From a virus, in IMG/VR virus record IMGVR_UViG_3300009161_006153, positions 1-64,000 of that record: 64,000 nucleotides of DNA; one strand, 5' to 3'. The translations under genes were made by a program, and so were the position numbers. The notes under the pieces are model-generated. The model was not told the origin of the DNA. It did not search any database and saw only the letters and a program-made list of their open reading frames with translations. Below, piece after piece: positions 4,892 to 35,968 of the stretch (position 1 is its first letter; each line of letters starts with the position of its first letter).

Positions 4892-4895
4892 AAAT

Positions 4896-5643: not shown

Positions 5644-5660
5644 AAAATAAAATAATAATA

Positions 5661-6914: not shown

Positions 6915-6928
6915 TTAAATAGCTAAAT

Positions 6929-8521: not shown

Positions 8522-9375
8522 TGAATATTTATTTTTTATCATTTTATACGGAAGGACCGGAGATAGACGGCGGATATAACTTGAGTAATGTTGTGAAAAA
8601 AATTAAAGAAAGATTATCCCCATTTTTTTCTGATATTTTTTTATTTAATAAGAGCGATTTAAAAGATATCGACGGAAGTGAACTATTTTGTAATTCTTAC
8701 GATGAAGAACTTGAAATGAATCCGAATGCTAATAAAATAGGTTATTTTGATTTCAAAGGATTCCTAATAAGTCATACGCTAAATAAAATTCCAGAGGGAT
8801 CCATACTAATATACCATGACGGGAATTTTGAAAAAAATTCACAGTACTGGGAAAGTGATTGGGAAAATATAGTGGGATTGTCTAATAAATTATTAAAAGA
8901 TAATAACAGCGACATGTTTTTCCAATTTGAAAGAGAGGGTGTATACGTAAAAGAATACGTAAAGACATACACGATAGATAAAATATTTCCAGACCCTACA
9001 GAAAACTTGATCGTTAAAGACTGTATACTAATAAATGCAGCCAGGATGATAATGAGGAATACTGATTTCAGTAGAAACTTCATAAAAGAATATACTAATT
9101 TGTGCATGGATAAAGAACTTGTTGCAAAAACTCCTAATCCAAATCCACACCCAGATTTCAAATGGTCTTGCGGTGATCAGGATGTTCTGAATTGTCTAAT
9201 CTACCGGTATATATTAGATGGGAAATTCCCACCGACATTTCCGATTTATTCCTTCATATACAGGATTATGAGAATTGAAAATAGACCTTTTATGTGGGAG
9301 GTCTATAATAAGGTCCATAATACTGGTATATCTTCCCATTATAACCACAATCTTATACAACATTTAAACAGATAA
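8521..9375 (+). CDS. Hypothetical protein, possibly GT-A glycosyltransferase
   Basis: YHDG, INA and DQDVLN motifs resemble GT-A enzymes; TGATG overlap with the upstream stop. Confidence 0.4.
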   Translation: MNIYFLSFYTEGPEIDGGYNLSNVVKKIKERLSPFFSDIFLFNKSDLKDIDGSELFCNSYDEELEMNPNANKIGYFDFKGFLISHTLNKIPEGSILIYHDGNFEKNSQYWESDWENIVGLSNKLLKDNNSDMFFQFEREGVYVKEYVKTYTIDKIFPDPTENLIVKDCILINAARMIMRNTDFSRNFIKEYTNLCMDKELVAKTPNPNPHPDFKWSCGDQDVLNCLIYRYILDGKFPPTFPIYSFIYRIMRIENRPFMWEVYNKVHNTGISSHYNHNLIQHLNR

Positions 9376-9377
9376 GA

Positions 9378-10607
9378 ATGAATAAAATAAAAGAATTGTT
9401 TAGTCTAGGTGACATTTACGTTTCAGATTTCATAAAGGATGATGAATCCCCAAGAGGTGATAGGGTAGATCTAAAAATGATGCTAGAAGAATCAACTGGG
9501 GCAGTTAGATTAGAAAAATGTGCTCCGTTAGATTCCATGTACGGAAAATATTGGTATCGATCTGGAATCAATCAAACAATGACTAAAGAGCTTTCCGGAA
9601 TAGTAACAAATATATTAGATCTCGTTAAGCTTAACGAGAATGACGTATGGGTAGATATAGCATGTAATGATGGAACACTATTAAGTTATCTTCCAAAAAA
9701 GATTATTAGAATAGGAATAGATCCTGTTGACGATTCATTTAAAAAAGAATCCGAAAAACACGCAGATCTAATTATTCAGGACTATTTCACTTACGAGGAA
9801 TTTGCTAAGTCAAGATTTGGAAATTCCAAAGCTAAGGTTGTTACCTCTATTGCGATGTTTTATGACCTGGAAAATCCGGATAAATTTATAGATGACGTGA
9901 ATAAAATTCTAGATGATGATGGTCTATGGGTACTTCAACTTTCATACACCCCTCTGATGATAAAACAGATGGCATTTGATAATATATGTCACGAGCATAT
10001 TTATTATTATTCTCTATTTAACATGAAAAATCTACTAGAGAGGAGAGGATTTAAAATAGTCGATTGTCAGCTTAATGATATTAACGGGGGATCTTTTAGA
10101 ATCTACGTTATGAAGGAGAATGGTAATGCCAGTAAGTTTTCAACTCAACCAAATAGAGATGTTTGTGAATTTAGGGTAAATTCTATACTTGAATACGAAA
10201 GAACATTAAATCTCGATTCGGTTGAAACATGGACTAAGTTCTACGAGGACATAAAAGAGCTAAGAGAAAAAACTGTTAGTTTCATAAAGAGAGAAAAAGA
10301 GAAGGGTAAAAAGATATGGGGATATGGTGCTTCAACAAAAGGTAACACCCTGCTGCAATACTTTAACTTAGATAATACACTGATAGACGGAATAGCAGAG
10401 AGAAGTTTTTATAAATGGGGTCTTAAAACAGTTGGAACAAATATTCCTATTTACTCTGAAGATGATATGAGGAAAGAAAATCCAGATTATCTTTTAGTTC
10501 TTCCGTGGCACTTTATTAATGAATTTAAAGAAAGAGAATCAGAATTTCTCAAGAGAGGCGGTAAATTTATAGTTCCATGTCCTAAGTTTGAAATTATAGG
10601 TATCTAA
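9378..10607 (+). CDS. NDP-hexose C-methyltransferase
   Basis: YWYRSG, DIACNDG, IDP, FDNICHEHIYYY, NGGS, GYGASTKGNT, LPWHF. Confidence 0.85.
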   Translation: MNKIKELFSLGDIYVSDFIKDDESPRGDRVDLKMMLEESTGAVRLEKCAPLDSMYGKYWYRSGINQTMTKELSGIVTNILDLVKLNENDVWVDIACNDGTLLSYLPKKIIRIGIDPVDDSFKKESEKHADLIIQDYFTYEEFAKSRFGNSKAKVVTSIAMFYDLENPDKFIDDVNKILDDDGLWVLQLSYTPLMIKQMAFDNICHEHIYYYSLFNMKNLLERRGFKIVDCQLNDINGGSFRIYVMKENGNASKFSTQPNRDVCEFRVNSILEYERTLNLDSVETWTKFYEDIKELREKTVSFIKREKEKGKKIWGYGASTKGNTLLQYFNLDNTLIDGIAERSFYKWGLKTVGTNIPIYSEDDMRKENPDYLLVLPWHFINEFKERESEFLKRGGKFIVPCPKFEIIGI

Positions 10608-11392
10608 TGAATATAGTAATAGGTAACACCTCACAGCAATCGAATTATTATCCGGATGACTATATTAGGATATCTTCCAGAAATATTGACTTTGATTATA
10701 TCTCTAGTGAAAGATTCGAATCCGCTTTTTTAACTTTTGCAGAGCAAAGGATATACGAAGAAAATATAGATTACATAGGTCCTAATTTTAGATACACTCT
10801 GGAGGTAATAGAGAAGCTTCTTGATAAAACTGACAAGGTAGTTATCTTTACTAGCTGTGAGCTTTGGTCAAATACCTCGGGGGTTATAACAAATCACACC
10901 AACCCTGATTTTAATATCTCCAATCAATATGCTCTATCTAAATTATTGCTTTTTAATGAAATTAAAAGATTGAGAAATTTAGACAGCAGGTATAATAAGG
11001 TTGTTATTGTTCATCCGTTTTATTTTAATTCTGTATACAGGAGTAAGTACTTTTTATTCGGAAAAATATTTGACTCCATAGTGAATAAGAAAAAAATCGA
11101 GGTAGGAAATCTCAATTTCTACAGAGATATGGTGCACACTAAATTTCTCGTAAAAAAATCCATAGAACTCGATAAAGATTCAATGCTTGGATCTGGTAAA
11201 CTTTTTAATGTTAGAGATTTTGTTATAGATCTATATGATAGTTTTGGAATGAACTATGCTGAGTATGTAAAAGAAAATCCTAATTTAATACCCAACGATA
11301 AATTAATTAGAGCTGATGTTAACTGGGATTATTCTTACCAAAATTTATTGGAAGATACTATAGAAGATTTAAAAAATAAGATAAATGGTTAA
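10607..11392 (+). CDS. Divergent NAD-dependent epimerase/reductase (SDR)
   Basis: YALSK (YxxxK), TS catalytic region and RDMVH; the Rossmann motif is degenerate. Confidence 0.6.
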   Translation: MNIVIGNTSQQSNYYPDDYIRISSRNIDFDYISSERFESAFLTFAEQRIYEENIDYIGPNFRYTLEVIEKLLDKTDKVVIFTSCELWSNTSGVITNHTNPDFNISNQYALSKLLLFNEIKRLRNLDSRYNKVVIVHPFYFNSVYRSKYFLFGKIFDSIVNKKKIEVGNLNFYRDMVHTKFLVKKSIELDKDSMLGSGKLFNVRDFVIDLYDSFGMNYAEYVKENPNLIPNDKLIRADVNWDYSYQNLLEDTIEDLKNKING

Positions 11393-12131
11393 AGATATAG
11401 TTAAATGGATCAGTGATTATTCAAAGAATAATAATTTAAGACCTCTCGTGGTAGGTATTTCTGGAGGTATAGACTCAGCGTTAGTCTCAACATTATGTGC
11501 TATGACTGGGATCGATACTTTAGTTGTGTCTTTACCTATATACCAAAAGGACGATCAATTATTAAGAGCAAGAAATCACGCTAGATGGCTTTCCAAAAAA
11601 TATGATAATGTTGAATTTATAGAAAAGGATTTATCTGGATTATTTGAAAATTTTAAATTTATATTTTCAGAAAACGAGATGAATGAATTATCTCTAGCCA
11701 ATTCAAGATCCAGATTAAGAATGATTACCTTATATCAGATGGCAGGATCTAAAGGGGGAATGGTTATCGGAACGGGCAATAAGATAGAGGATTTCGGGGT
11801 AGGGTTTTTTACTAAATACGGGGATGGGGGAGTAGATATTTCACCTATAGGTGATTTAACTAAAACACAGGTTAGAAACCTGTCGTCGGAATTGGGTATA
11901 ATAGAGGAAATAATATTAGCAGATCCCACTGATGGGCTGTGGGAGGAAGATAGAACCGACGAGCAACAGTTAGGAGCTACATACGAAGAACTTGAATGGG
12001 CTATGGAATTTTCAGGGAATCCTATAAATCTTAATAAAAGGCAGAGGGATGTTTATGAAATATATAGTAAATTCAATAGAATTAACAAGCATAAAATGAT
12101 CGGGATACCTGTATTTAAAATTATACAATAA
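11385..12131 (+). CDS. nadE: NH3-dependent NAD+ synthetase
   Basis: SGGIDS PP-loop, NSRSRLRM, GTGNK.E, FFTKYGDGG.DI.PI.DL.K, PTDGL, TDE..LG, HK. Confidence 0.92.
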   Translation: MVKDIVKWISDYSKNNNLRPLVVGISGGIDSALVSTLCAMTGIDTLVVSLPIYQKDDQLLRARNHARWLSKKYDNVEFIEKDLSGLFENFKFIFSENEMNELSLANSRSRLRMITLYQMAGSKGGMVIGTGNKIEDFGVGFFTKYGDGGVDISPIGDLTKTQVRNLSSELGIIEEIILADPTDGLWEEDRTDEQQLGATYEELEWAMEFSGNPINLNKRQRDVYEIYSKFNRINKHKMIGIPVFKIIQ

Positions 12132-12132
12132 C

Positions 12133-12945
12133 ATGAAAATAGGGATAATCACAATAGCTACTGGGAGATACAATCAATACGTTCCCGAATTATTAGAATC
12201 TTGCGAATCTTTCTTCCTCCCTGACCACAAAAAAACTTACTTCGTATTTACAGATGGAGACATCGAGTCAAGATCTAATGTAGTAAAAATACATCAGGAT
12301 AAATTAGGATGGCCGTTTGATTCAATGCTAAGATTTCACATGTTTTTAGAAATAAAAGAGGAGCTTTTAAAAATGGACTATATCTTCTTTATGAACGCAA
12401 ATAATCAGGTAGTCAGCACAGTGGATGATTCTATACTTCCTGTAGATTCAGAGTGCGGAATTGTAGCAACAATACATCCGGGCTTTTTCAATAGAGATAA
12501 AATTTCATATTCCTATGAGAGAAGACCGGAATCTTCCCTGTGTGTTAATTTCGGGTCAGAAAATAATTATTATCAGGGATGTTTTAATGGGGGAAGATCT
12601 AAATCTTTTATAGAAATGTCAGAGTTACTAAAATCAAAAATAGATACAGATTTATCAAATAAAATAATACCCATCTGGCATGATGAATCTGCACTAAACT
12701 GGTATCTTGTAGATAAAGATCCATTGGTTTTAAATCCTAACTATGCATATCCAGAACATTTAACCAAAGATCAGATTATAGATAATTTAGCAGAAAGAGG
12801 CATAACTATAGATAATGAGATGAGTTCAGAGATTATTAGTATTACTTCGGATGATCCTCATTCTTTTGTTAGCCAATTTGGTACTGTGAAGATAATGCAA
12901 AGAAACAAAAATAAAGACGGAGGTAAACCCTATTTAAGATCATAG
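12133..12945 (+). CDS. GT6-family alpha-1,3-Gal/GalNAc transferase
   Basis: ATGRY, FTD, WP..SMLRF, MNAN, HPGF, YYQGCFNGG, WHDESALN, KNK. Confidence 0.88.
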   Translation: MKIGIITIATGRYNQYVPELLESCESFFLPDHKKTYFVFTDGDIESRSNVVKIHQDKLGWPFDSMLRFHMFLEIKEELLKMDYIFFMNANNQVVSTVDDSILPVDSECGIVATIHPGFFNRDKISYSYERRPESSLCVNFGSENNYYQGCFNGGRSKSFIEMSELLKSKIDTDLSNKIIPIWHDESALNWYLVDKDPLVLNPNYAYPEHLTKDQIIDNLAERGITIDNEMSSEIISITSDDPHSFVSQFGTVKIMQRNKNKDGGKPYLRS

Positions 12946-12963
12946 TGAATAAAAATAAAAACA

Positions 12964-13800
12964 ATGAAGGATTTAACAAAAACAACATTCATAATTCCAA
13001 TAAAAGTAGAGCATTTCGATAGGTACAGAAATGCTAAGACGGTTCTCAGTTTTCTTAATCACCATTTCAAAACTAATGTATTTATTTACGAATCATCAGA
13101 TTCGGGTATTAAATTAGATTTTCTGGATGAGCTTAAATCCCTTAATATCAAGCATTGGCTGGTTGAACCAGAAGAGATGTTCCACAGAACTAAATATCTC
13201 AACATAATGCTAGATGAAGTAGAAACACCGGTGGTTGTTAATTATGATATTGATGTTATACTAGATCCTGACTTATATCTAGAATGCCAATCTGATATAA
13301 TTAATGGCGACTCAGATGTTGTTTATCCATACCATTACGGATATGATTTTCATGGACAGAAAATGGTTTTGGCAAATATAGACTTAGAAGCCTTCAGGGA
13401 GTCAGGATTTAAAACAGATTATATAACGGAAAGGCCAAATGTTTTTAATAACTTCTATTCTGAATATGGTCATTGTATATTTTTTAACACCGATGTTTAT
13501 AAAAAATACGGAGGGGAGAATGAATCTTTTATCAGTTATGGCCCGGAAGATAAAGAAAGAGGGGAGAGGTTTTTAAAGCTTGATAAAAAGGTTTTTTGGA
13601 AAAAATTCAGATCTGTGTATCACTTTGAACATTTTAGAGGTAATGATAGCTCTCCTGGAAATAATTACTATACAAATAACTGTAAAGTGTACGAGTCAAT
13701 ATCTTCTTTAAATAGAGAGGGGCTTTTGGTGTATTACTCTACCCAAGAGTATTTAAAAAAATATAAAACGATAGGTAATGAAAATATTAATAACGGGTGA
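12964..13800 (+). CDS. GT7/GT2-like galactosyltransferase
   Basis: NYDID (DxD), GGENESFISYGPED (cf. GWGGED), YHFEH. Confidence 0.7.
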   Translation: MKDLTKTTFIIPIKVEHFDRYRNAKTVLSFLNHHFKTNVFIYESSDSGIKLDFLDELKSLNIKHWLVEPEEMFHRTKYLNIMLDEVETPVVVNYDIDVILDPDLYLECQSDIINGDSDVVYPYHYGYDFHGQKMVLANIDLEAFRESGFKTDYITERPNVFNNFYSEYGHCIFFNTDVYKKYGGENESFISYGPEDKERGERFLKLDKKVFWKKFRSVYHFEHFRGNDSSPGNNYYTNNCKVYESISSLNREGLLVYYSTQEYLKKYKTIGNENINNG

Positions 13801-14593
13801 TAAAGGATTTATAGGGGGTAACTTATCCAAAAGATTTATAGATTTAGATGATACTGTATATCAGATTGACATAGATGATTTCTACTCCAACAATGATCAA
13901 TGGACTAATGAGTTAGTATCCACATTAGATGACATTTGTCCCGATGTCATTTTTCATGTAGGAGCGTGTTCAGATACCTTGGAGCAAGACGTTAACCACA
14001 TGATGGAACTAAATTATGAATCAACAAAGATTATAACGGACTGGTCGAAATCTAATTTTAAAAAATTAATATACTCATCCTCCGCAGCTAACTATGGCAG
14101 TGGTAATTATCCGTCAAATTTATATGGATGGAGTAAATATGCGGCTGAGGGTTATGTAATATCTAATGGAGGATTAGCACTAAGATATTTTAATGTTTAT
14201 GGACCGGGTGAATCACATAAAGGTAAAATGAGCTCTGTTGCTTTTCAGGCATATCTAAAAAAACAGAAAGGGGATATCGTTAAACTCTTTCCTGGTGAGC
14301 CTAAAAGAGACTTTGTGTATATCGAGGATGTTATTTCAGCTAACATATTTGCTTTAGAAAATTATGAAGTTTTAAAATACAATTGGTACGACGTTGGATC
14401 TGAATCTGCTAGAACATTTGAGGATGTTTTAGTTAATATGGGGATTTTAAATTGGACTTATTATTCAGAATCAGATATACCTAAAGGATACCAATTTTAC
14501 ACAAAAAGCTCTAAATGGATGCCAGGTTGGAGTCCGAAATATAATATAGAAAAAGGGCTAAAAGAATATATCAAAGTACTAAGCAATGAGTAA
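13778..14593 (+). CDS. hldD: ADP-L-glycero-D-manno-heptose 6-epimerase-like
   Basis: GDKGFIG, FHVGACSDT, SSSAA.YG, NLYGWSK, LRYFNVYGP.E.HKG.MSSV, RDFVY, YQ.YT. Confidence 0.78.
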   Translation: MKILITGDKGFIGGNLSKRFIDLDDTVYQIDIDDFYSNNDQWTNELVSTLDDICPDVIFHVGACSDTLEQDVNHMMELNYESTKIITDWSKSNFKKLIYSSSAANYGSGNYPSNLYGWSKYAAEGYVISNGGLALRYFNVYGPGESHKGKMSSVAFQAYLKKQKGDIVKLFPGEPKRDFVYIEDVISANIFALENYEVLKYNWYDVGSESARTFEDVLVNMGILNWTYYSESDIPKGYQFYTKSSKWMPGWSPKYNIEKGLKEYIKVLSNE

Positions 14594-15497
14594 GATATTA
14601 GTAACAGGGGGAAGCGGATTGGTAGGTAGTCAATTCAAGGGTAGCCAATTTGAAAGGATCTCAACTAAAAACGGGGATTTGAGGGATAGAAAATTTGTAT
14701 CACGATTAATGCAAAATTCTAATTATGAAGGGGTAATTCACTGCGCAGGTAAGGTTGGAGGGGTATTAAGTAATTCTCAAAAACCTGCAGAGTTCTACCA
14801 TGATAACATTATGATCAATACAAATGTTATTGATCAGTCGATGAAAAATGGAATAAAGAAACTTGTGTTTTTTTCTTCTACCTGTGTGTTCCCAGATAAA
14901 GTTGAATATCCACTAAGTCCAGATAAAATACAGCTAGGACCACCACACCCTACTAATTATGCCTATGCATATGCTAAAAGAATGGGACAGGTTCAAATAC
15001 AAGCATATAAACAACAATACGGGGTTGATTATTTCACGGTAATCCCGTGTAACATATACGGACCTGGAGATTTTTATAATCTGAATGACGGCCACGTGAT
15101 TCCGTCTCTGATTCATAAAATGTATCTTGCGCATCAAAATAACAGTGACTTTGAAGTTTGGGGTAGTGGAAATCCTTTGAGGGAATTCATATTCTCTGAG
15201 GATGTTGCTACTATCACAATGAAACTATATGAAGATTATAAAGGGGAGGACCCTGTAATAATATCAACATCAACCGAAATATCCATTAAGGATATAGTTT
15301 ACACCATGTCTAAAATATTTGGATTTAAGGGGAGAATAGTTTTCGATTCAAGTAAGCCTGATGGACAGTTAAGAAAACCAAGTGATAACTCAGTACTTAA
15401 GTCGATGTATCCAGAATATAAGTTCACGGCATTTGAAGAGGGACTTGAAAAGTCTATCGACTGGTTTATTAAAAATTACCCAAAAATTAGGATATAA
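14586..15497 (+). CDS. fcl: GDP-L-fucose synthase
   Basis: GGSGLVG, AGKVGG, SSTCVFP, YAYAK, PCNIYGP, HVIP, WGSG.P.REF, KPDG. Confidence 0.9.
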   Translation: MSKILVTGGSGLVGSQFKGSQFERISTKNGDLRDRKFVSRLMQNSNYEGVIHCAGKVGGVLSNSQKPAEFYHDNIMINTNVIDQSMKNGIKKLVFFSSTCVFPDKVEYPLSPDKIQLGPPHPTNYAYAYAKRMGQVQIQAYKQQYGVDYFTVIPCNIYGPGDFYNLNDGHVIPSLIHKMYLAHQNNSDFEVWGSGNPLREFIFSEDVATITMKLYEDYKGEDPVIISTSTEISIKDIVYTMSKIFGFKGRIVFDSSKPDGQLRKPSDNSVLKSMYPEYKFTAFEEGLEKSIDWFIKNYPKIRI

Positions 15498-16075
15498 TGG
15501 AAAATAATCAAATTTTTAAAAGAGAATATAGCGAAATCTTAGTTCTAGGTGATGGGGTAACAGAGGTTATCAATCCAAAAAATTTTTTATGGTTCTCAGA
15601 TACTATAATAGAAACTGGGACATGTTCGGGAGCAGGAATAGATAGATTTTTAGAAGCTGGATATGGTGACATAAGGAGCGTAGAACTAGACCGGAATTGG
15701 TTTGAAATTTCATCTAACAGATTTAGATCTAATCAAATGGTTAAGATATTGTTTGGAGATTCTAGAGAAAAAATGAAAGATATGCTTCCAGATAAACCTG
15801 CAGTTGTTCTTCTAGATGCACATCCGGCTGGACCTGGAACTGCGGGGCATGAAGATTTCATCAAACATCAGAGTTCTGGTACTTTGGATCAGTGCTCATT
15901 TCTACAAGAAAAAATAATATACGAGGAGATCTCTATTGTATCTAAAAGCGATCATAAGCATTTAATAATAGTGGATGATCAACATTCTACAGATCCTAAT
16001 ATAATTAATCTTTTACCCGGATATCAGTTTGAATTGGTTAATAAAAAATACTTAGTTTGCATCCCTAAAAATTAA
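15497..16075 (+). CDS. Methyltransferase-fold protein
   Basis: IETGT, SVE, GDS, LDAH, IVDD. Confidence 0.6.
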   Translation: MENNQIFKREYSEILVLGDGVTEVINPKNFLWFSDTIIETGTCSGAGIDRFLEAGYGDIRSVELDRNWFEISSNRFRSNQMVKILFGDSREKMKDMLPDKPAVVLLDAHPAGPGTAGHEDFIKHQSSGTLDQCSFLQEKIIYEEISIVSKSDHKHLIIVDDQHSTDPNIINLLPGYQFELVNKKYLVCIPKN

Positions 16076-16079
16076 AAAA

Positions 16080-17063
16080 ATGAATAAAAGAGCTCTTATT
16101 ACTGGGATTAATGGTCAATCTGGAAGTTATTTAGCTGAGTTCCTCCTTAAAAAAGGATATGATGTATACGGAACAATAAAGAGAAACTCGGTTTCTGAAA
16201 ATCAAACATCAAGGCTAGACGAGGTTTATGATCAGATAAAAGGTAATTTAATATACGCAGATCTTTTGGATGTACCATCGCTTATACATGCTTTAAAGAT
16301 ATCAGATCCACACGAGATCTACAATTTAGCAGCTCAGTCGCATGTTAGAATCTCTTTTGATCAGCCGGTTTACACCGCACAATCAACAGGTATAGGTGCC
16401 CTTAATTTAATAGAGGCGGTGAGAATCCATAATCCTGAAATCAAAATATATCAGGCATCATCATCAGAGATGTTTGGAAATTCTATAGACCCTGATGGGT
16501 ATCAAAGGGAGACAACCCCGATGAATCCTGTCTCCCCGTATGGGTGTGCTAAGGTCTTTGCTTATAACATATCTAGGAATTATAGAAATTCATACAATAT
16601 GTTTATTAGTAACGGGATTCTATTTAACCACGAATCTCCGCGTAGGGGCGTTAATTTTGTCACTAACAAAGTAGTAAAGGGAGCGGTAGAGATTAAGATG
16701 GGATTATCGGATAAGCTCGTTTTAGGCAATTTAAAAGCGTCTAGAGACTGGGGACACGCCAGAGACTACGTGAAAGCAATGTGGATGATACTTCAACAGG
16801 AAAATCCAGGCGATTTTGTTTGCTCCACCGGGATAAGCCACACTGTAGGGGATTTAGTTGATTATGTTTTTGATAGATTACAATTAGATCAGAGCAAGCA
16901 CGTAATTACAGATGAAAAATATCTTAGGCCTGAAGAATTGGAGCATTTAAAAGGGGACTCAAGTTATTTAAGAAAAGTTACAGGATGGGAACCAGAGTAC
17001 ACTTTTGAATCTATGTTAGATGAGATGATTGATTATTGGGTCTTGTATTACTCCACTAAGTAG
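16080..17063 (+). CDS. gmd: GDP-mannose 4,6-dehydratase
   Basis: GINGQSGSYL, NLAAQSHV, QASSSEMFG, SPYGCAK, FNHESPRRG, RDWGHA. Confidence 0.95.
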   Translation: MNKRALITGINGQSGSYLAEFLLKKGYDVYGTIKRNSVSENQTSRLDEVYDQIKGNLIYADLLDVPSLIHALKISDPHEIYNLAAQSHVRISFDQPVYTAQSTGIGALNLIEAVRIHNPEIKIYQASSSEMFGNSIDPDGYQRETTPMNPVSPYGCAKVFAYNISRNYRNSYNMFISNGILFNHESPRRGVNFVTNKVVKGAVEIKMGLSDKLVLGNLKASRDWGHARDYVKAMWMILQQENPGDFVCSTGISHTVGDLVDYVFDRLQLDQSKHVITDEKYLRPEELEHLKGDSSYLRKVTGWEPEYTFESMLDEMIDYWVLYYSTK

Positions 17064-29039: not shown

Positions 29040-31274
29040 ATGGCATTTAGAATACAATTAAGAAGGGACACCTCAGCTTTATGGGAAATAAACAACCCCT
29101 TACTTTTACAGGGTGAAGCTGGTTATGAATCAGACACTAGATATTTAAAAGTTGGTGACGGAATAACATACTGGAATAGTCTGCCTTATTTTGTAGGAAT
29201 GACAGGCCCACAGGGTTCAACCGGCTCGCAAGGTCCAACCGGGTCACAAGGACCAACTGGATCTCAGGGCACAACAGGTCAGCAAGGTCCAACTGGACCC
29301 GCAGGAGGTGTTATAAATCTCACCACAATAGGAACCTCTGGACCTGCCACTTTTTTGAATGATTTTTTAAATATACCGCAGTATCAAAGTGTCATCACTA
29401 ATCCAATAACAGGAACAGGTTTAACCGGTTACATACCCCGATGGTCTACTACCTCCTCTCTTACAAATTCTATTTTATTTGATAATGGTACGAATATAGG
29501 CATAGGTACAACAGGTCCTTCTTATAAACTAGATGTTAACGGGGAAATTAACACTAATATCGGGATAAGAATAGGCACTAATAATGCTAAAACCGGTTTT
29601 TATGGTGGAGCTAATATAGTAGATATGTGGGCAGGAAACGAGAAATTAGCTACATGGGGACTAGCTCCCGCTGGAGGCACACTATATGATCATTTTGCAG
29701 GTTGGGTTTTTACTACAGGTAGTACGGGTACTGCATCTTCCGCATTTAGAATATCCTCTAGCTTAGTATCAACATCTGCAAATAATGCAGGATTAACCCA
29801 ACTTTTAATCAATCCAGGATATAGCCAGCAAACATTTGGTATAGGTACATTAAGAGGCGTATATTACAATCCTAGCTTAGGTAGTGGCGGAATTAACACA
29901 TCTACCCATATAGCTTTCGAAAATACAAGTGGTGATAATTCTTTTAATTCAGGTTCAGGTAAAACTACTTTTTTTGGTCAAGATTTACAAATCCGAAAAA
30001 ATCCATCTGGCTATGCTGGTTTTAATACCATATATTCACAAGTTCCTTTATTTACAGGGGGATTAACCAATTTTAGTGATACTACAAACGCATATATTAC
30101 GCAAGGTGTTTTAGGCGGGAATAATATGGCTACTAACACTGTACTAATAAGAAACTTACTAGGGGACGTATCACAATCATCTGGCACATATACCAATACA
30201 CAAATTTTAGGTAGAGTATTAAGTGCAACTGGAAGTCCTGAACATAGATTCTTACATATTAATCCCAGTTATGATGACAACCAAGTTCTTAATACATATA
30301 CAGGAACTATAAGAGGTGTTTATTACAATCTTACCCAAAGTACTTCTTTTCCAGCCGGGGGTAAAAACATAGCTTTTGAAAATGTAAATGGTGATAACTA
30401 TTTAAACTCTACATCAGGTTCCACCTTAATAGGATACACATCGGGTGCAACCTCTTCCTATGTACTAGATATAAACGGTAGAGCAAGAACTACACTAGCA
30501 CTACAGGCAGGTTTAACAGGTCCTAGCGATGCAAATATAGCTGCTGGCGTTTTGTTTGCTTCTAGTGGAATAATAGCGACAACAAACGGCATTAATATAG
30601 CTTCTATTACAAGCTCGCCTTTTAATAAAAATGGGATATATCCAACTAGTAACGGCATGCTTTTTTTCAACGGAAATAACCAAATTGCTAAAATGCAGTT
30701 GCTAGTTGGTGTTTCCCCAGCCTATTTTGAGATCAATGCTTCTTTTAATCCAGCAAACACGGGTAATACTGGAGACCAGTCAATTTTAAGGATACAGGGA
30801 GGAATTCAGCCAGCCGCTAATGTTAACAATTCTACCAATCAAACACAAATAATAATAGACCCTACTATAGATCAATTCAACGGTCTTACCGCAGGTGGTA
30901 CAGGTAGCGGGACTTTAAGAGGAATCTACTACAACCCAACTGTCACAGATATAGCTGGATCAGCAAACAAACATGTAGCGATCCAAACCGTGAAAGGTGA
31001 TGTCCTTTTTGGAACAGGGACATATGCAACAGGGGAGGGTGGATACGTTGGAATAGGCCAGGGATTTAACCCAACAACAGGAGCCACCGCAGATATGCCA
31101 CAAAGGCCCTTGCACGTCAGGGATATAATGAGATTACAGTCTAGAAATACATTCCCTGCTGGAGCTTCCGCAGGAGATATAATGATGTATACAGATGGAT
31201 CTAGTAATGTCGATTTATATTATTACGGTGCAACTGCTGGCGTTGGCGGATGGAGAAAGGTAAGCTTTATTTAA
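29040..31274 (+). CDS. Fibre protein: Mtd_N/hyaluronidase-N anchor + collagen-like repeat + three internal repeats
   Basis: RIQLRRDT...NP.LL.GE.G...DT...KVGDG.T.WNSLPY, (GPTGSQ)n, NIGIGTT, 3x (I[ND]P..GT[LI]RG[VI]YYN..[IV]A). Confidence 0.75.
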   Translation: MAFRIQLRRDTSALWEINNPLLLQGEAGYESDTRYLKVGDGITYWNSLPYFVGMTGPQGSTGSQGPTGSQGPTGSQGTTGQQGPTGPAGGVINLTTIGTSGPATFLNDFLNIPQYQSVITNPITGTGLTGYIPRWSTTSSLTNSILFDNGTNIGIGTTGPSYKLDVNGEINTNIGIRIGTNNAKTGFYGGANIVDMWAGNEKLATWGLAPAGGTLYDHFAGWVFTTGSTGTASSAFRISSSLVSTSANNAGLTQLLINPGYSQQTFGIGTLRGVYYNPSLGSGGINTSTHIAFENTSGDNSFNSGSGKTTFFGQDLQIRKNPSGYAGFNTIYSQVPLFTGGLTNFSDTTNAYITQGVLGGNNMATNTVLIRNLLGDVSQSSGTYTNTQILGRVLSATGSPEHRFLHINPSYDDNQVLNTYTGTIRGVYYNLTQSTSFPAGGKNIAFENVNGDNYLNSTSGSTLIGYTSGATSSYVLDINGRARTTLALQAGLTGPSDANIAAGVLFASSGIIATTNGINIASITSSPFNKNGIYPTSNGMLFFNGNNQIAKMQLLVGVSPAYFEINASFNPANTGNTGDQSILRIQGGIQPAANVNNSTNQTQIIIDPTIDQFNGLTAGGTGSGTLRGIYYNPTVTDIAGSANKHVAIQTVKGDVLFGTGTYATGEGGYVGIGQGFNPTTGATADMPQRPLHVRDIMRLQSRNTFPAGASAGDIMMYTDGSSNVDLYYYGATAGVGGWRKVSFI
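29199..29306 (+). repeat. Collagen-like Gly-X-Y repeat (18-nt period)
   Basis: GPQGSTGSQGPTGSQGPTGSQGTTGQQGPTGPAG; boundaries approximate. Confidence 0.8.
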
Positions 31275-31332: not shown

Positions 31333-31899
31333 ATGGCATTCAGAGTACAAGTTAGAAGAGATACAGGTCAGAGATGGAGTTTAAATAATCCAATTTTGCT
31401 TAATGGTGAAATGGGATTCAACACTGACACCAACCAATTTAAGATAGGTAACGGTACAACCACGTGGAACTCCCTTTCCTATTGGACTGGAGGTGTAGGA
31501 CCAACTGGACCAACAGGTCCTATAGGTCTTATAGGCCCAACCGGCCCAACCGGACCTGGAAGTTCAGTTAGTTATAAAGTGTATACTGCTTTATTAACAC
31601 AAACAGGTCAAGATGCTCCTGTAGCTATTGTATTAGAAAATACTATTGGGACTATTGTATGGACAAGAAACAGCGCGGGCTCTTACACAGGAACGTTAAA
31701 TAACTCATTTCCTGAAAATAAAACATTTATCACATATACCCATGATGGTATTAACGGAAACACAGGATATCCTGGAGGCGTTAGATGGAACAACAACGAG
31801 GTTGAGTTATCGTTTAATGATGGTATTATGAACCCTGGGCAGTTCATTGATATAGGAGACGATGCTATTGAATCAATAGAAATAAGAGTTTACAATTAA
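31333..31899 (+). CDS. Short fibre/appendage protein with Mtd_N-like anchor and collagen-like repeat
   Basis: MAFRVQVRRDT...NPILLNGEMG..TDT..FKIGNG.T.WNSL.Y, GPTGPTGP, YKVYTALLTQ...IEIRVY. Confidence 0.72.
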   Translation: MAFRVQVRRDTGQRWSLNNPILLNGEMGFNTDTNQFKIGNGTTTWNSLSYWTGGVGPTGPTGPIGLIGPTGPTGPGSSVSYKVYTALLTQTGQDAPVAIVLENTIGTIVWTRNSAGSYTGTLNNSFPENKTFITYTHDGINGNTGYPGGVRWNNNEVELSFNDGIMNPGQFIDIGDDAIESIEIRVYN

Positions 31900-31964
31900 A
31901 TTAGTTTAAACTGTCAATACCAAATAGACAAATAGAGTGTGCTAAAGAGATTAAATAAAGGAAA

Positions 31965-31993
31965 GAAACAACTTTTATATTACCCTATATAAG
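31965..31993 (+). promoter_or_regulatory. Class-II promoter GAAAC-N18-TATAAG
   Basis: Upstream of 32031; AGGAAAGAAAC is identical to 34531-34541. Confidence 0.6.
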
Positions 31994-32030: not shown

Positions 32031-32912
32031 ATGAATTTAATTTTTCAGATCTCAGGAGGAATAGGTAAATGTGTCATGGCTACTGCAATTTGCGAAGCTA
32101 TGAAGAAGAAATATCCAAATTCTAACCTTATTGTAATATCAGGATACCCTGAGGTTTTTCTAAATAATAAACATGTACATCGGTCTTATTCATTTAATAA
32201 CCTAAGTTATTTCTACGAGGAGTATATCGAGGATAAGGAGATCAAAGTTTTTGCTCATGATCCTTATCTTGAAACAAGCCACATCAAATCAGAGAAACAT
32301 TGCATAGAAACTTGGTGCGATCTATTTGGACTGGAATATTCTGGCGAAGTTCCACAGATTTATCTAACAGATAGAGAGCTTAATTTCTTTGGAAATAGAT
32401 TCGTTTCAGATAAACCTATTTTTCTTATTCAGTCTAACGGAGGAGCTCAGAGCGATCTCAAATATTCATGGGCTAGAGATATACCTAGATCAGTGGTTGA
32501 ATCTGTGATAGAAGAATTCAGGGAAACCCATAATATAGTACACATAAAAAGGGAGGATCAGCTAGGATTTCAATTCACCACAGCTGTTTCTGATTCTTTC
32601 AGAGCCCTTTGTGTTTTAATTATGATGAGCGATAAGAGACTAATGATGGATAGTTTTGGGCAACACGCAGCTTTTGCATTAAACAAGCCTTCTGTTGTTT
32701 GCTGGGTCTCTAATAAGCCAAACGTTTTTGGTTACCCAATACACACAAATATAGTTTGTAATCCATTTACGGTAAAACCTGAATTAAGAAGTTCAGTTTT
32801 TTCTAAATTTAATATAAGTGGAGACCTATTAGAATTTCCATATAATAACGAAAACGAGATATTTAACACAGAACACATCATTGGATCATTGAAAAATTTA
32901 AATAATGGTTGA
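32031..32912 (+). CDS. GT9-like (heptosyltransferase-like) glycosyltransferase
   Basis: GGIGK..MAT....MKK.YP, PEVFLNN, IQ..GG, DSFGQHAAFAL.KPSVV.W. Confidence 0.65.
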   Translation: MNLIFQISGGIGKCVMATAICEAMKKKYPNSNLIVISGYPEVFLNNKHVHRSYSFNNLSYFYEEYIEDKEIKVFAHDPYLETSHIKSEKHCIETWCDLFGLEYSGEVPQIYLTDRELNFFGNRFVSDKPIFLIQSNGGAQSDLKYSWARDIPRSVVESVIEEFRETHNIVHIKREDQLGFQFTTAVSDSFRALCVLIMMSDKRLMMDSFGQHAAFALNKPSVVCWVSNKPNVFGYPIHTNIVCNPFTVKPELRSSVFSKFNISGDLLEFPYNNENEIFNTEHIIGSLKNLNNG

Positions 32913-33726
32913 TAAAATATTCTATCAAAGCAGCCTTCCTAGATCGGGATCAACACTTTTACAAAACATACTTGGACAAAACCCAGATTTCTATGTCACA
33001 CCAACATCCGGTGTTTTAGAACTTGTGTTTGCTGCCAGAGGTAATTACACAAACTCCCCAGAATTCAAGGCACAGGATACAGGACAAATGCAAGAAGCTT
33101 TTATCTCTTTTTGTCGGGGTGGAATGCAGGGTTATTACAACTCCCTTACCGACAGAAAATATGTTATAGATAAAAGTAGAGGATGGGGAATTCACTATGA
33201 TTTTTTAAACATGGTTTATCCACAGCCTAAGATAATCTGTATGGTCAGAGATCTCCGTGATGTGTTTGCCTCAATGGAGAATAATTTTAGAAAAAACCCA
33301 GATAAACAGGATCCGGTATTAGATTGGTCTAAAATGCAAGGAACCTCTGTTCCGAAAAGAATTGATATATGGGCTCAAAACCCTCCTGTCGGGATGGCTT
33401 TAGAAAGACTCTCAGAGATATTTAGAATGGGTATAGATAAGAAAATGCTCTTTGTTAAATTTGAGGATCTCTGTTTATATCCTGATACGGAAATGCAGAG
33501 GATATATCAATATCTAGATCTCCCTTATTTTGAGCACGATTTTGATAACATAGAGCAAATAACAAAAGAGGATGACGTTGTTTATGGCGTTTTCGGGGAT
33601 CATAATATTAGAAAAAAATTAGAGCCTGTACAGTCTAAAGCAAAAACACTTTTAGGTAAAGATGTCTGTGATTGGGTTTATAATAATTACCGTTGGTTTT
33701 TTGATCAATTCAGATATTCAAAATAA
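32905..33726 (+). CDS. Sulfotransferase (PAPS-dependent)
   Basis: 5'-PSB loop SLPRSGSTLL, DKSR, 3'-PB motif VRDLRDVFAS, FEDL..P. Confidence 0.88.
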   Translation: MVDKIFYQSSLPRSGSTLLQNILGQNPDFYVTPTSGVLELVFAARGNYTNSPEFKAQDTGQMQEAFISFCRGGMQGYYNSLTDRKYVIDKSRGWGIHYDFLNMVYPQPKIICMVRDLRDVFASMENNFRKNPDKQDPVLDWSKMQGTSVPKRIDIWAQNPPVGMALERLSEIFRMGIDKKMLFVKFEDLCLYPDTEMQRIYQYLDLPYFEHDFDNIEQITKEDDVVYGVFGDHNIRKKLEPVQSKAKTLLGKDVCDWVYNNYRWFFDQFRYSK

Positions 33727-34532
33727 TGAAATCCAAATTTCATACACAAATCTACGAGGTAGAAAGGCCTAATCTTTTCCAAATTTTTAAACCACATAGT
33801 AGGAAGTACTGCTTATTTCCTAAAGATAATGCGGTCACGAGTTCTCTTATAAACGGAACTATATACGAGCCATATCTTTTTTACTTTATCAGAGATAATG
33901 ATATAAATTTAGAAGGAACTGATATCATAGATATTGGTGCGAATAACGGTAATTTTACTATAGAATTCTCAGAGATTACAGGTGATACGGGTAGAGTCTT
34001 TTCTTTCGAGCCACAAAGAATCGTTTTCCAACAACTCTGCGGTAATGTTTTCATGAACGGTATCGATAATGTTTTTGCATATAATTTAGCAATAGGAGAT
34101 ACTACGGGTAAAACCCAAATAAATAGGCCTGATTATTTTTCAGATGACTTTGTTAACTTTGGCGATGTTTCTATAGAGAGCGACAAATCTAAAAATTCTG
34201 AATCTGTAGAGGTTAGAGAATTGGATTCTTTTGAATTTAATACCGTTAAACTTATAAAGATAGATGTTCAAGGTTACGAGGTTTTAGTTATTAAAGGAGC
34301 TATCGAGACCATTAATAAACATAGACCTATTATTTTTATAGAGGTTGAGGATCACCAGTTAAGAAAGTTTGGACATTCAGAGAGCGATTTATTAAAAACG
34401 ATAGAAGATCTTGGGTATACTATAAAGAGATTTCAGGAAGGAATTCCTTATCAAACATATAGTGGTGAATGTCTAGACTGCGTTTGCATCCCTAATGAGC
34501 TACTTCAGAATCAATCCTTTATTATCAGATAG
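33726..34532 (+). CDS. FkbM-family methyltransferase
   Basis: IDIGANNG, FEPQ, KIDVQGYE, RPIIFIE. Confidence 0.88.
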   Translation: MKSKFHTQIYEVERPNLFQIFKPHSRKYCLFPKDNAVTSSLINGTIYEPYLFYFIRDNDINLEGTDIIDIGANNGNFTIEFSEITGDTGRVFSFEPQRIVFQQLCGNVFMNGIDNVFAYNLAIGDTTGKTQINRPDYFSDDFVNFGDVSIESDKSKNSESVEVRELDSFEFNTVKLIKIDVQGYEVLVIKGAIETINKHRPIIFIEVEDHQLRKFGHSESDLLKTIEDLGYTIKRFQEGIPYQTYSGECLDCVCIPNELLQNQSFIIR

Positions 34533-34536
34533 GAAA

Positions 34537-34565
34537 GAAACCAAATAAAGTATTCATAGTATAAT
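34537..34565 (+). promoter_or_regulatory. Class-II promoter GAAAC-N18-TATAAT
   Basis: Ends 5 nt before ATG 34571. Confidence 0.65.
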
Positions 34566-34570
34566 ACATT

Positions 34571-35014
34571 ATGATTTTAGTATTTTTTGGACAGCCACAT
34601 AGTGGCAAAACAACATTATCTAATGAGATTTTAAACGACGGGTTTGAATTCTCGATAGATGGTGACGATCTTAGAGAAATGTTTTCGAATAAGGATTTTT
34701 CTAGAGACGGAAGAATTAAAAATTTAAACAGAGCTAGCGATATAGCAGCTTTCCTAAATAAAAAAGGTAAAAATGTTGTGATGTCTTTAGTTTATCCTAT
34801 TAAGGAATGCAGGGATTATTTAAACAGTTTAAACCCAAATGAAGTTAATTGGGTGTTTTTAAAATACCAAGGTGAGAGGGGGAGAGAAAAAAACCATGTT
34901 ATTGATTTTGAATTCCCAGAGGCTAATGAGAAATACCTTGAACTTGATACGTCTGAATTATCTATTTCCGAATGCTTAGAAAAAATAAAAGAATTATATG
35001 GAAGATCAAAATAA
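34571..35014 (+). CDS. cysC: Adenylylsulfate (APS) kinase
   Basis: GQPHSGKTT, DGDDLR, DFSRDGR..N..R, SLVYP...R, FE.P. Confidence 0.8.
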   Translation: MILVFFGQPHSGKTTLSNEILNDGFEFSIDGDDLREMFSNKDFSRDGRIKNLNRASDIAAFLNKKGKNVVMSLVYPIKECRDYLNSLNPNEVNWVFLKYQGERGREKNHVIDFEFPEANEKYLELDTSELSISECLEKIKELYGRSK

Positions 35015-35405
35015 ATCTTGGGAAAAAATATACCATATGAAATCATCGATGAGTAACTCAGATTCTGGGTTCTCTATGTTTCTAGGAAGATGGCAGCCAC
35101 TTCATGAGGGTCACAAAGAATTATTTAATCAGGAGTTTAGTTTAGGCAAGAATGTTTGTATCATGATAAGAGAGATGGACAAAGATTCAAAAAATCCTTT
35201 TAGCCCGGAAGATGTAATGAAAAATATCATGGATGAATTCCGTGATTTTTATGATTCCGGAAGGCTTAAAATTCTAGTAGTTCCAAATATAACTTCTATA
35301 AACTTTGGAAGATCAGTCGGATATGATATTATAGAACACGTCCCTCCTCAAAGTGTAGCAGAAATATCTGCCACTAAGATTAGGGAAAAAATGAAAATAG
35401 GTTAG
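34998..35405 (+). CDS. HxGH nucleotidyltransferase (ATP-sulfurylase-like or NMNAT-like)
   Basis: GRWQPLHEGH, NPF, ISATKIR. Confidence 0.75.
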   Translation: MEDQNKSWEKIYHMKSSMSNSDSGFSMFLGRWQPLHEGHKELFNQEFSLGKNVCIMIREMDKDSKNPFSPEDVMKNIMDEFRDFYDSGRLKILVVPNITSINFGRSVGYDIIEHVPPQSVAEISATKIREKMKIG

Positions 35406-35406
35406 A

Positions 35407-35634
35407 ATGTCTAAAGTAAAAATACAAAGACATATTTATAAAAGCATATCCTATAGGATTATAGGGACACTTCAGACTTGTATCATTGGCTATATTCTCA
35501 CTGGGAATTACAAGATAGCTTCATCACTTGGAATAATAGAGCTAGTTGTAAAACCGATTATTTATTTTTTTCATGAAAGAATATGGTATAAATGGATAAA
35601 AATTGGTATAATAAAAGACGAAAATAAAAAATAA
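35407..35634 (+). CDS. DUF2061-like small membrane protein
   Basis: RHIYKSISYR..GT ... K.IIYFFHERIW. Confidence 0.75.
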   Translation: MSKVKIQRHIYKSISYRIIGTLQTCIIGYILTGNYKIASSLGIIELVVKPIIYFFHERIWYKWIKIGIIKDENKK

Positions 35635-35642
35635 AAAAAAAC

Positions 35643-35918
35643 ATGGAAAATCAAACCAAACTACCAGAAGAACTATTGCTTGAAATTCAACAGCTTAGAG
35701 ATGAATTAACAGAGAATGTTTTAAAAATCGGGAGGCTTAACGTGCAGGTCTCTTTTTATGAGAAAGACTTAGAGATCTTCAGAAATGAGCTTAAAAAATT
35801 ATACGAAGAGGCCGCTAAGATATCTATCAAAGAGGAGGAGATGCAGAATAAGGTTACTAAAGAATACGGAAACGGTAAACTTGATTTTGAGACTGGGTTA
35901 TTCCATTTGAATAGCTAA
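35643..35918 (+). CDS. Hypothetical coiled-coil protein
   Basis: 91 aa, helical, ends KEYGNGKLDFETGLF. Confidence 0.6.
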   Translation: MENQTKLPEELLLEIQQLRDELTENVLKIGRLNVQVSFYEKDLEIFRNELKKLYEEAAKISIKEEEMQNKVTKEYGNGKLDFETGLFHLNS

Positions 35919-35940
35919 GTTTTATAATCAATTAGTTACG

Positions 35941-35968
35941 AAAAGCTACCATATCAGGTAGCTTTTTT
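35941..35968 (+). terminator. Intrinsic terminator
   Basis: AAAAGCTACC-atatca-GGTAGCTTTTTT. Confidence 0.82.

Follow-up and report, generated by a model that had tools for sequence, protein, structure and literature searches.

Locus and question

Does a block of seven genes in the tail region of a phage genome encode its own supply of the sulfate donor 3'-phosphoadenylyl sulfate (PAPS), and if so, which enzyme makes the adenylyl sulfate (APS) from which PAPS is formed? We addressed this question in the first 64 kb (64,000 nucleotides, hereafter the window) of the 74.9-kb IMG/VR virus record IMGVR_UViG_3300009161_006153, whose completeness is estimated by CheckV at about 24%. The G+C content is about 33% over the window, and every gene lies on one strand. 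Seven tightly packed plus-strand open reading frames (ORFs) occupy positions 32031-35918, with two Mtd_N/collagen tail-fibre genes upstream (29040-31274 and 31333-31899) and a neck-like gene of 845 aa downstream. A preliminary description of this DNA had placed a seven-gene sulfation cassette between fibre and neck genes, and all of its ORFs, with exactly the same coordinates, as well as both flanks were recovered. Its domain calls were also reproduced, as the profiles for sulfotransferase, FkbM, APS_kinase, CTP_transf_like and DUF2061 all matched.

Two overlapping genes are central to the question: a short APS kinase gene (34571-35014, plus strand, 147 aa) and a gene for a 135-aa HxGH nucleotidyltransferase (NT; 34998-35405, plus strand). 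They share 17 nt in different frames (35014/34998). Since the N-terminal residues W8, H13, S16 and S17 of the NT are conserved among its homologues, the ATG at 34998 and the overlap are real, in agreement with the overlap noted earlier. The N-terminal extension with these residues is confined to NTs that are not fused. It had also been remarked that no sulfate-reduction genes are visible, and indeed neither PAPS reductase/CysD (PF01507) nor the ATP sulfurylase Sat (PF01747) has a match in the 75-kb record, which covers about 24% of the genome according to CheckV. The family libraries that we used recognise two kinds of ATP sulfurylase, Sat (PF01747) and CysDN (TIGR02039). On the evidence of gene content and sequence presented below, we consider it probable that the NT is a third, minimal kind.

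Distribution of the nucleotidyltransferase family in cellular genomes

The preliminary description had proposed that the gene at 34998 encodes a miniature ATP sulfurylase. This proposal is well supported, and we regard the NT as a likely ATP sulfurylase because of its fusions to APS kinase in both orders, its genomic neighbourhoods including the replacement of cysD, its mutual exclusion with Sat and CysD, and the coexistence of a separate NMN adenylyltransferase (NMNAT; NMN, nicotinamide mononucleotide) or NadD in the genomes that carry it. The family is not restricted to viruses. It comprises at least 1599 clusters at 90% identity, and a search of 1.84 billion proteins gave 805 representatives at E 1e-10 or better. 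Besides 505 IMG/VR contigs it was found in 56 bacterial or archaeal loci, and the scan of cellular genomes, made with strict patterns, gave no SAR11 locus. In haloarchaeal isolates (Natrialba, Haladaptatus, Halalkalicoccus and others), a full-length APS kinase (153 bits; TIGR00455 158 against a cut-off of 138.7) is fused to the NT, and the fusion gene (for instance L128:7485-8345) lies directly 3' of a sulfotransferase gene. A marine Flavobacteriales genome shows the order cysC (240 bits)-NT-deoC-cysQ, where cysQ scores 262 against the TIGR01331 cut-off of 229, and a Marinimicrobia genome shows the order Sulfotransfer_5-cysC-NT. A short kinase and an NT are also adjacent in a marine group III archaeon (L102:4948-9609), between metK/ahcY and glyA; the context there is that of the methyl cycle (S-adenosylhomocysteine hydrolase, SAM synthetase and serine hydroxymethyltransferase), not of a sulfotransferase. 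Separately, a YqcI/YcgG-family gene (PF08892, about 245 bits) lies directly 3' of the haloarchaeal sulfotransferase and fusion genes (L128:8372-9124 and L122:8371-9114).

Ten multi-domain proteins, taken from the 150 best NT representatives, were scanned against Pfam. The NT precedes a full APS kinase in five of them (P0280, P0292, P0304, P0313 and P0341) and follows an APS kinase in three (P0242, P0261 and P0275). In P0330 (432 aa) the NT is joined to a weak DHHA1 match below the Pfam cut-off. The DHH/DHHA1 family includes phosphatases of 3'-phosphoadenosine 5'-phosphate (pAp), and this fusion would be a further link to the PAPS cycle. The remaining protein, P0290 (378 aa), has no second recognised domain.

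Ten NT-bearing genomes were then searched for the known sulfurylases and for enzymes of NAD synthesis. Neither Sat nor CysD above its cut-off was found in any of the ten, and PF01507 above cut-off was absent from the five bacterial genomes among them, one of which (G009) gave a sub-threshold score of 19.7 bits. All ten harbor a separate archaeal NMNAT (>250 bits) or NadD (>150 bits), scoring over the respective cut-off.

Two larger samples, of 201 Halobacteria and 201 Flavobacteriales genomes, indicate that the NT and the known sulfurylases exclude each other. Among the Halobacteria, five genomes have an APS kinase fused to the NT (101-108 bits) and no Sat, in four others the APS kinase gene directly follows sat and the NT is absent, and the remaining 192 have no APS kinase, no NT and no Sat (Fisher 0.008 for the exclusion of NT and Sat, ignoring shared ancestry). 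CysD was not found in the tested Halobacteria with an APS kinase, and against the NT profile no housekeeping NMNAT of this group exceeds 36 bits. Of the Flavobacteriales, 94 harbor cysC, with cysD as partner in 86, the NT in eight, both in none and neither in none (Fisher 9e-12, not corrected for phylogeny). The NT lies about 100 nt downstream of cysC, in the slot that cysD occupies elsewhere, and Sat is absent from the seven of these eight NT genomes that were tested (all but G378). Fusion in both orders, displacement in situ and exclusion with both known sulfurylases are classic signs of non-orthologous replacement.

Sequence and predicted fold of the nucleotidyltransferase

The NT matches PF01467 with 27 bits, and it fails the cut-offs of all NMNAT and phosphopantetheine adenylyltransferase (PPAT) models. 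Its scores against the NMNAT models are 16-29 bits, where the cut-offs are 127-449 (20.6 against 181.2 for TIGR01527, 26 against 127 for NF002243, and 16-29 against 397-449 for the NadM models). By sequence it is nearest to NadM and the archaeal NMNATs (profile E 3e-7 to 2qjt). Two stretches that do not vary across the family, H36-E-G-H39 and S124-A-T126-K-I-R129, conform to the NMNAT nucleotide-binding motifs HxGH and S-x-T-x-x-R. The AlphaFold2 (AF2) model of the NT (pLDDT 87) adopts the HUP nucleotidyltransferase fold. In the VIA comparison it reaches Z 8.7 to both the M. jannaschii NMNAT and a PPAT, 8.2 to NadM and 7.0 to the T. thermophilus ATP sulfurylase 1v47 (112 residues), followed by the smaller HxGH enzymes 3glv (Z 6.8), TagD (2b7l, Z 6.6) and HldC (5x9q, Z 6.2). 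Taken alone, the modelled fold does not separate NMNAT, PPAT and Sat substrates.

Housekeeping NMNATs from three haloarchaea were aligned with the NT; two of these organisms (G001 and G002) have an NT as well. Both kinds of protein have the motifs GRxQPxHxGH, NPF and S-x-T-x-x-R in common, and an insert of 14 residues and the C-terminal helical domain of the NMNATs are missing from the NT. In addition, R58 is invariant in the NT at a position occupied by G in NMNATs, G104-R105 takes the place of their D/T-F, and an invariant G-R-(G/D/S)-V-G-Y replaces the NMNAT segment after the third strand. This central segment and the C-terminal helical domain hold the NMN moiety in NMNATs. We propose that the NT is a cut-down descendant of the archaeal/NadM-type NMNATs, in which the segment for NMN binding would have disappeared and two invariant arginines would have been acquired. 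The alternative raised in the preliminary description, an NMNAT-like protein, thus stands as a statement of ancestry, as the nearest sequences and folds are those of NMNATs, and is unlikely as a statement of function.

The NT also shows a series of motifs that can be placed against those of Sat. In a haloarchaeal Sat the motifs are QTRN191, HRAH197, GRDHAG285 and SGTKLR346; the NT has, in the same order, related but not identical ones (GRWQ30, HEGH36, GRSVGY104 and SATKIR124). We infer that the NT series GRWQPLHEGH, GR(S/G/D)VGY and ISATKIR corresponds to the Sat series QTRNAPHRAH, GRDHAG and SGTKLR. One relative of the NT, the fusion protein P0292, scores 21.6 bits against PF01747 (cut-off 24.3), over the last 39 profile positions only.

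The short APS kinase

The kinase encoded at 34571-35014 scores 37.1 bits against PF01583 (cut-off 21.1) and 32.9 against TIGR00455 (cut-off 138.7), with residues 2-98 only being aligned. A profile built from its family matches more than 20 solved APS kinases or kinase domains of PAPS synthases (best 8e-12), and besides these only weak tails of adenylate and gluconate kinases. The solved ribosylnicotinamide kinase domain of NadR (6gye) is absent from these matches, and we accordingly rejected a NadR-like identity for the kinase. The invariant residues of the family comprise the P-loop G7-x-P-x-x-G12-K13, D30-G31-D32-x-L34-R35, F/Y-S, R48, N51, R54 and S72...P76. They align with the same motifs in 2yvu, 2gks and 8a8h, the stretch F/Y-S...R...N...R corresponding to the APS-binding stretch of the solved enzymes. 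For this comparison with solved APS kinases, we took the motif set of APS kinases to be the P-loop, DGDxxR, F-S-x-x-x-R-x-x-N-x-x-R and S-x-x-x-P. The full lid of APS kinases (KGLYxKAR...FTGI) is not present in the family, which has a shortened Y-x-G-E-R-G-R-E-x-x-H-V-x-D-F instead, and the profile alignments end near residue 98. The phage protein can hence be described as an APS kinase with a truncated lid.

Conservation of the module in related phages

The third component, a PAPS-type sulfotransferase of 273 aa (32905-33726, plus strand), overlaps the preceding glycosyltransferase (GT) gene by 8 nt and scores over the cut-offs of PF13469 (70.3 bits against 27) and PF00685 (50.8 bits against 22), with a further match to phrog_27463 (1e-41). 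P12-R13-S-G15-S16-T17 and R115...S123 are invariant in 43 homologues, P-R-x-G-S-T being kept family-wide, and these motifs fit what we take to be the definitions of the 5'-phosphosulfate-binding (5'-PSB) and 3'-phosphate-binding (3'-PB) motifs for PAPS.

Co-occurrence across phage genomes had been suggested as a check on the cassette, and it was borne out in the best 80 of the 505 IMG/VR contigs with an NT. The kinase adjoins the NT in 76 of these 80 loci and the gene for a small DUF2061 protein in 75, the misses being mostly at contig ends, and a sulfotransferase and a GT9-like gene are found near the NT in 59 and 54 loci, respectively. The NT, kinase and DUF2061 occur in 26 loci without a GT9-like gene. 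The typical order is a spike-like virion protein, the GT9-like and sulfotransferase genes, the kinase, the NT, DUF2061, an ORF of about 88 aa, the tail sheath and the tube. The core is therefore kinase-NT-DUF2061, usually together with a sulfotransferase and a GT, and its location in the tail module is found in relatives as well. The claim that the seven genes form one cassette holds in part: five of them make up the conserved module, while the FkbM gene is found in none of the 80 related loci and the 91-aa ORF at the end of the block resembles a pre-sheath gene of the relatives. On the other hand, the view that CysC serves here in sulfation rather than in sulfur assimilation fits these data, with no PAPS reductase in the record and a sulfotransferase beside the kinase in the 59 loci.

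Where the sulfotransferase is missing, other glycan tailoring genes stand beside the kinase-NT-DUF2061 core. At L013:3925-5496, L039:976-2595 and L063:2739-5231, a NodU/NolO-like carbamoyltransferase or a multi-domain GT2-GT4(-pyruvyltransferase) protein is encoded next to the core. In 25 of the 80 loci (L003:3081-3428 and 24 others), though not in this window, the cassette contains a 115-aa HAD-like ORF placed among the core genes for kinase, NT and DUF2061. Its similarity is to the beginning of the PHROG profiles for phosphoheptose isomerase and polynucleotide kinase, and the ORF is a candidate HAD-type 3'-phosphatase for the by-product pAp, an analogue of CysQ.

In the deposited phages, a DNA-level search gave no match to the cassette, and no deposited phage record has the full cassette. 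Fused kinase-NT proteins of phrog_10255 occur in Xylella phage Sano (gp35, L081:5578-6315) and Stenotrophomonas phage DLP_6 (L082:4584-5315). They show 30-40% identity in the NT part and are encoded among early genes with no DUF2061 or sulfotransferase gene nearby, and they may differ in function from the pair in the cassette. Full phage-type cassettes, with GT9-like, sulfotransferase and DUF2061 genes, are also found on three contigs (L083, L088 and L093) binned with metagenome-assembled genomes (MAGs) of Bacteroidota and their relatives (Ignavibacteria, Sediminibacterium and Flavobacteriaceae); these contigs may be mis-binned phage DNA or prophages, and may hint at the host range.

Proposed pathway and alternative explanations

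In the pathway that we propose, the NT would adenylylate sulfate (ATP + sulfate -> APS + pyrophosphate), and the short kinase, whose gene overlaps that of the NT and would be translationally coupled to it, would phosphorylate the 3'-OH of APS to give PAPS, thereby pulling the unfavourable first step. The sulfotransferase would transfer the sulfate from PAPS to a sugar acceptor installed or extended by the GT9-fold transferase, and in this phage the FkbM enzyme may also methylate the same acceptor. In some archaea and bacteria, the NT would replace Sat or CysDN. As an explanation of the locus as a whole, a phage-borne sulfation module in which the NT and the kinase supply PAPS seems likely to us.

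Several points weigh against this explanation. The sulfurylase activity of the NT family is predicted from genomic evidence, and the sulfated product is hypothetical. Sequence and fold both place the NT closer to NMNAT and PPAT (Z 8.7) than to Sat (Z 7.0), the whole VIA list falls within the range flagged as possibly generic, Foldseek returned weak matches only and none at E 0.001 or better for the NT model, and the NT has no match to PF01747 at E 0.01 or better. The presence/absence statistics ignore shared ancestry, the eight Flavobacteriales genomes may represent a single clade, and many genomes are incomplete MAGs. The kinase of the phage, a short protein, clears the threshold of Pfam but not that of TIGR00455 (32.9 against 138.7). 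Among the 80 phage loci, 21 have no recognised sulfotransferase within 6 kb, and in cultured phages of Xylella, Stenotrophomonas and Xanthomonas, distant fusions of kinase and NT are encoded without a sulfotransferase gene in the vicinity. Finally, the phage also encodes a NadE-like protein, which keeps a role in NAD synthesis alive.

The acceptor is where the proposal is weakest. The module keeps its place between spike or fibre genes on one side and those for sheath or neck on the other, which points to late expression and to a target associated with the virion, and this step is the weakest of the argument. Sulfation of the phage's own fibre or virion glycans, as put forward in the preliminary description, has the position in the tail block as its sole basis, and the host envelope is equally open as a target. 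It is quite possible, although we lean away from it, that PAPS is made as proposed while the sulfated product lies off the virion, on host envelope glycans or in a soluble form, where it could serve superinfection exclusion or be released as a decoy. A host-envelope target is suggested by the glycan-synthesis block of at least 17 kb on the same record, of a kind usually read as modifying the host surface, and by the role of most GT9 enzymes in lipopolysaccharide (LPS) synthesis, since these classically act on the LPS core; the DUF2061 protein, moreover, is a membrane protein. A virion target is suggested by the position of the cassette, here inside the tail module and in relatives between a spike-like gene and the sheath and tube genes, and by the fact that GT9 also contains protein heptosyltransferases, TibC among them; neither point is decisive. 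The most inclusive version of our proposal combines a minimal NMNAT-derived sulfurylase class (core of about 110-135 residues), spread by phages and displacing Sat or CysDN in haloarchaea, streamlined marine Flavobacteriales, Marinimicrobia and marine Euryarchaeota, with sulfated and methylated GT9-installed sugars on tail fibres or virion proteins, DUF2061 as a sulfate channel or tether, and viral cysC as a gene for virion decoration. That all of these parts hold jointly is doubtful.

The remaining alternatives concern the reaction of the NT itself. The NT might be an NMN/NaMN adenylyltransferase that supplies NAD during infection, perhaps with the NadE-like gene at 11385-12131, which scores over the TIGR00552 cut-off, and the kinase and the NT might form a NadR-like riboside-kinase/NMNAT pair. 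This accounts for the best sequence and fold matches, to NadM and the archaeal NMNATs, and for the common motifs GRxQPxHxGH, NPF and S-x-T-x-x-R; phage NMNATs do exist in deposited genomes (H13-H16). However, the NT scores only 20-29 bits where the NMNAT cut-offs are 127-449, it lacks the NMN-binding segment and the C-terminal domain, and a true NMNAT or NadD is already present in each of the cellular genomes with an NT that were tested. Furthermore, the partner kinase matches APS kinases and not 6gye, the partner in cells being a bona fide CysC, and NadE is absent from all 80 related loci. As exclusion with Sat and CysD would not be expected of an NAD enzyme either, we consider this function very unlikely.

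It is still less probable that the kinase-NT pair acts on some other adenylate, either in making a 3'-phospho-adenylylated compound other than PAPS (CoA-like) or in pAp salvage, with the host supplying APS. PPAT and dephospho-CoA kinase form a known pair of nucleotidyltransferase and 3'-kinase, PPAT ties with NMNAT as the best fold match (Z 8.7), and P0330 fuses the NT to the weak DHHA1 match; however, the cellular partner kinases score over the APS-kinase equivalog cut-off, the NT-bearing genomes show no other source of APS, and the NT fails the PPAT models. Equally improbable is an HldC/TagD-like sugar-phosphate or glycerol-phosphate nucleotidyltransferase, providing for instance the ADP-heptose that GT9 enzymes use as donor: the cassette GT has a GT9 fold, HldC, 3glv and TagD appear in the NT fold list (Z 6.2, 6.8 and 6.6), and the HAD-like ORF of the 25 loci matches the start of the phosphoheptose isomerase and polynucleotide kinase profiles, but we rejected this assignment because the NT follows CysC in cells and 26 phage loci have the kinase-NT-DUF2061 set but no GT9-like gene, the NTs of haloarchaea, Flavobacteriales and Marinimicrobia being tied to CysC, CysQ and sulfotransferases with no GT9-like gene detected there, the exclusion with Sat and CysD would be left unexplained, and the kinase known for heptose belongs to the PfkB type and is no P-loop relative of APS kinase.

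Comparison with known sulfate-activating systems

An ATP sulfurylase function of the NT would mean that a known reaction is carried out by a new family within a known superfamily. Sat (PF01747; 1v47, yeast Met3 and the haloarchaeal Sat at L142:265-1416) catalyzes the reaction that we propose for the NT, belongs to the same HUP/HxxH superfamily and has the same genomic partner, as sat is located directly 5' of cysC in four Halobacteria. However, Sat has about 380 aa with a PUA-like N-terminal domain, whereas the NT has about 110-135 aa, no such domain and no match to PF01747. Since the nearest relatives of the NT are NMNATs and not Sat, its recruitment within the superfamily would have been independent. 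CysDN (TIGR02039) occupies the same operon slot as the NT, directly 3' of cysC in Flavobacteriales, and the two exclude each other there; CysDN differs in that CysD is a member of the PAPS-reductase-like ATP pyrophosphatase family (PF01507) working with the GTPase CysN, whereas the NT loci examined have no GTPase partner. The archaeal/NadM NMNATs (TIGR01527, NF002243; 1f9a, 1ej2, 2qjt and 2qjo) are the best sequence and fold match of the NT (Z 8.7 and 8.2), but they carry the insert and the C-terminal domain, and the NT is tied to CysC rather than to NAD genes. PAPS synthases and Sat-CysC fusions (human PAPSS1 1x6v, Aquifex 2gks and CysNC) join APS kinase and sulfate adenylyltransferase in either order, as the NT family does; in the latter, however, the putative sulfurylase half is a domain of about 110 aa from another branch of the superfamily, and the kinase of the phage is cut to 147 aa.

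Among deposited phages, sulfotransferase homologues are found only in three cyanophages and in some marine single-cell viruses, none of which has an NT. The cyanophages S-SKS1, S-SCSM1 and S-SRM01, large marine myoviruses, encode homologous sulfotransferases (26-29% identity), but no homologue of the NT or of the kinase is found in their records, and they presumably use the PAPS of the host. Pfam, NCBIfam, PHROG and the Atlas hold no functional name for the NT family, the Atlas giving only "cytidylyltransferase-like" and "DUF2061" viral clusters, and a full-text literature search with incomplete coverage of journals turned up no description of a third ATP sulfurylase or of a phage PAPS pathway. 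What we propose as new is thus the minimal enzyme family and the self-contained viral sulfation system, rather than the reaction or the superfamily.

If the assignment is correct, a third sulfurylase of about one third the size of Sat would alter the reading of sulfate activation in genomes, as organisms scored as negative for it, including some haloarchaea, small marine Flavobacteriales, Marinimicrobia and marine group II/III archaea, may be able to make PAPS. Likewise, viral cysC, usually counted as an auxiliary gene of sulfur assimilation, would belong to a sulfation system in these phages, and the two genes would form a very small PAPS generator for biotechnology. The question is also raised whether large aquatic phages bear sulfated glycans.

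Other genes of the block and of the window

The first gene of the block (32031-32912, plus strand, 293 aa) encodes a GT-B glycosyltransferase whose AF2 model (pLDDT 86, pTM 0.86) is closest to members of GT9, the heptosyltransferase-like family. Foldseek matched the model to 3tov (1.9e-11), WaaF (1psw, 4.1e-11), and TibC and WaaC (about 1e-7), with TMq 0.55-0.65. No Pfam or NCBIfam match at E 0.01 or better was found, so that its place in GT9 is that of the predicted fold and not of a sequence profile. The third gene (33726-34532, plus strand, 268 aa) encodes an FkbM-family methyltransferase (TIGR01444, 106.3 bits against a cut-off of 37.7; PF05050). Besides its absence from the 80 related loci, this gene was seen on one MAG contig (L089), and it is an accessory insertion of this phage lineage rather than part of the module core.

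The DUF2061 gene (35407-35634, plus strand) encodes a small membrane protein of 75 aa with two hydrophobic helices (PF09834, 72 bits against a cut-off of 23.1, profile positions 1-51 of 52). In related phage loci it is sometimes present in two copies that flank the kinase and NT genes, and it occurs in four of the 56 cellular loci, all four being phage-like full cassettes; DUF2061 is hence a phage-specific partner of the kinase-NT pair. As a guess, it might tether the pair to the membrane or act as a channel for sulfate or another anion. A search for longer fusions of DUF2061 found none, which is weak evidence, and the literature turned up only mentions in regulons or gene lists. The last gene of the block (35643-35918, plus strand) encodes a coiled-coil protein of 91 aa without a family match. 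Weak similarity (26-28%) is found in five loci, and an ORF of about 88 aa is located at the same pre-sheath place in 46 of the 80 related loci. It is probably a tail-module gene, the counterpart of this small pre-sheath gene, rather than a part of the sulfation module.

At the other end of the window, positions 1-17063 hold a long co-oriented glycan-synthesis block with GT4-, GT6- and FUT8-like transferases, several methyltransferases (among them two FkbM, one class I and one sugar C-methyltransferase), a UDP-glucose dehydrogenase, epimerases and a GDP-mannose 4,6-dehydratase. The NadE-like gene (11385-12131; TIGR00552, 165 bits against a cut-off of 63.65) lies in the middle of this block, and could encode either a genuine NAD synthase or an amidotransferase co-opted to modify a sugar, possibly to form a uronic-acid amide.

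Candidate regulatory elements

An exact 11-mer, AGGAAAGAAAC, occurs before both sub-blocks, as the preliminary description had noted. Copy 1 (31959-31969, plus strand) lies 62 nt 5' of the GT9-like gene and is followed by TATA-rich boxes, and is a candidate promoter or regulatory element; copy 2 (34531-34541, plus strand) overlaps the stop codon of the methyltransferase gene and lies 19 nt 5' of a TATAAT box and 30 nt 5' of the kinase ATG. There are exactly two copies in the 64 kb, where 0.07 would be expected, one in each of the only two intergenic gaps of the block. Since there are three exact 11-mer pairs within the same 4 kb, AGGAAAGAAAC is unusual by its placement and not by its repetition. 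Allowing up to two mismatches gave no enrichment of AGGAAAGAAAC, a generic sigma-70 scan was at background level, and no copy of TATAAATA, the T4 late-promoter box, lies 5' of the cassette. The placement of AGGAAAGAAAC suggests candidate elements, and the two promoters ascribed to the block are a guess, because all three scans were unenriched. TATAAATA is depleted in the whole window (four observed against about 12 expected), so this T4-like phage probably uses another late-promoter consensus. The single terminator described after the block was recovered at 35940-35967 (plus strand), where an intrinsic-terminator-like hairpin with a U-run (-16.6 kcal/mol, z -3.9) forms a convincing predicted terminator that closes the block.

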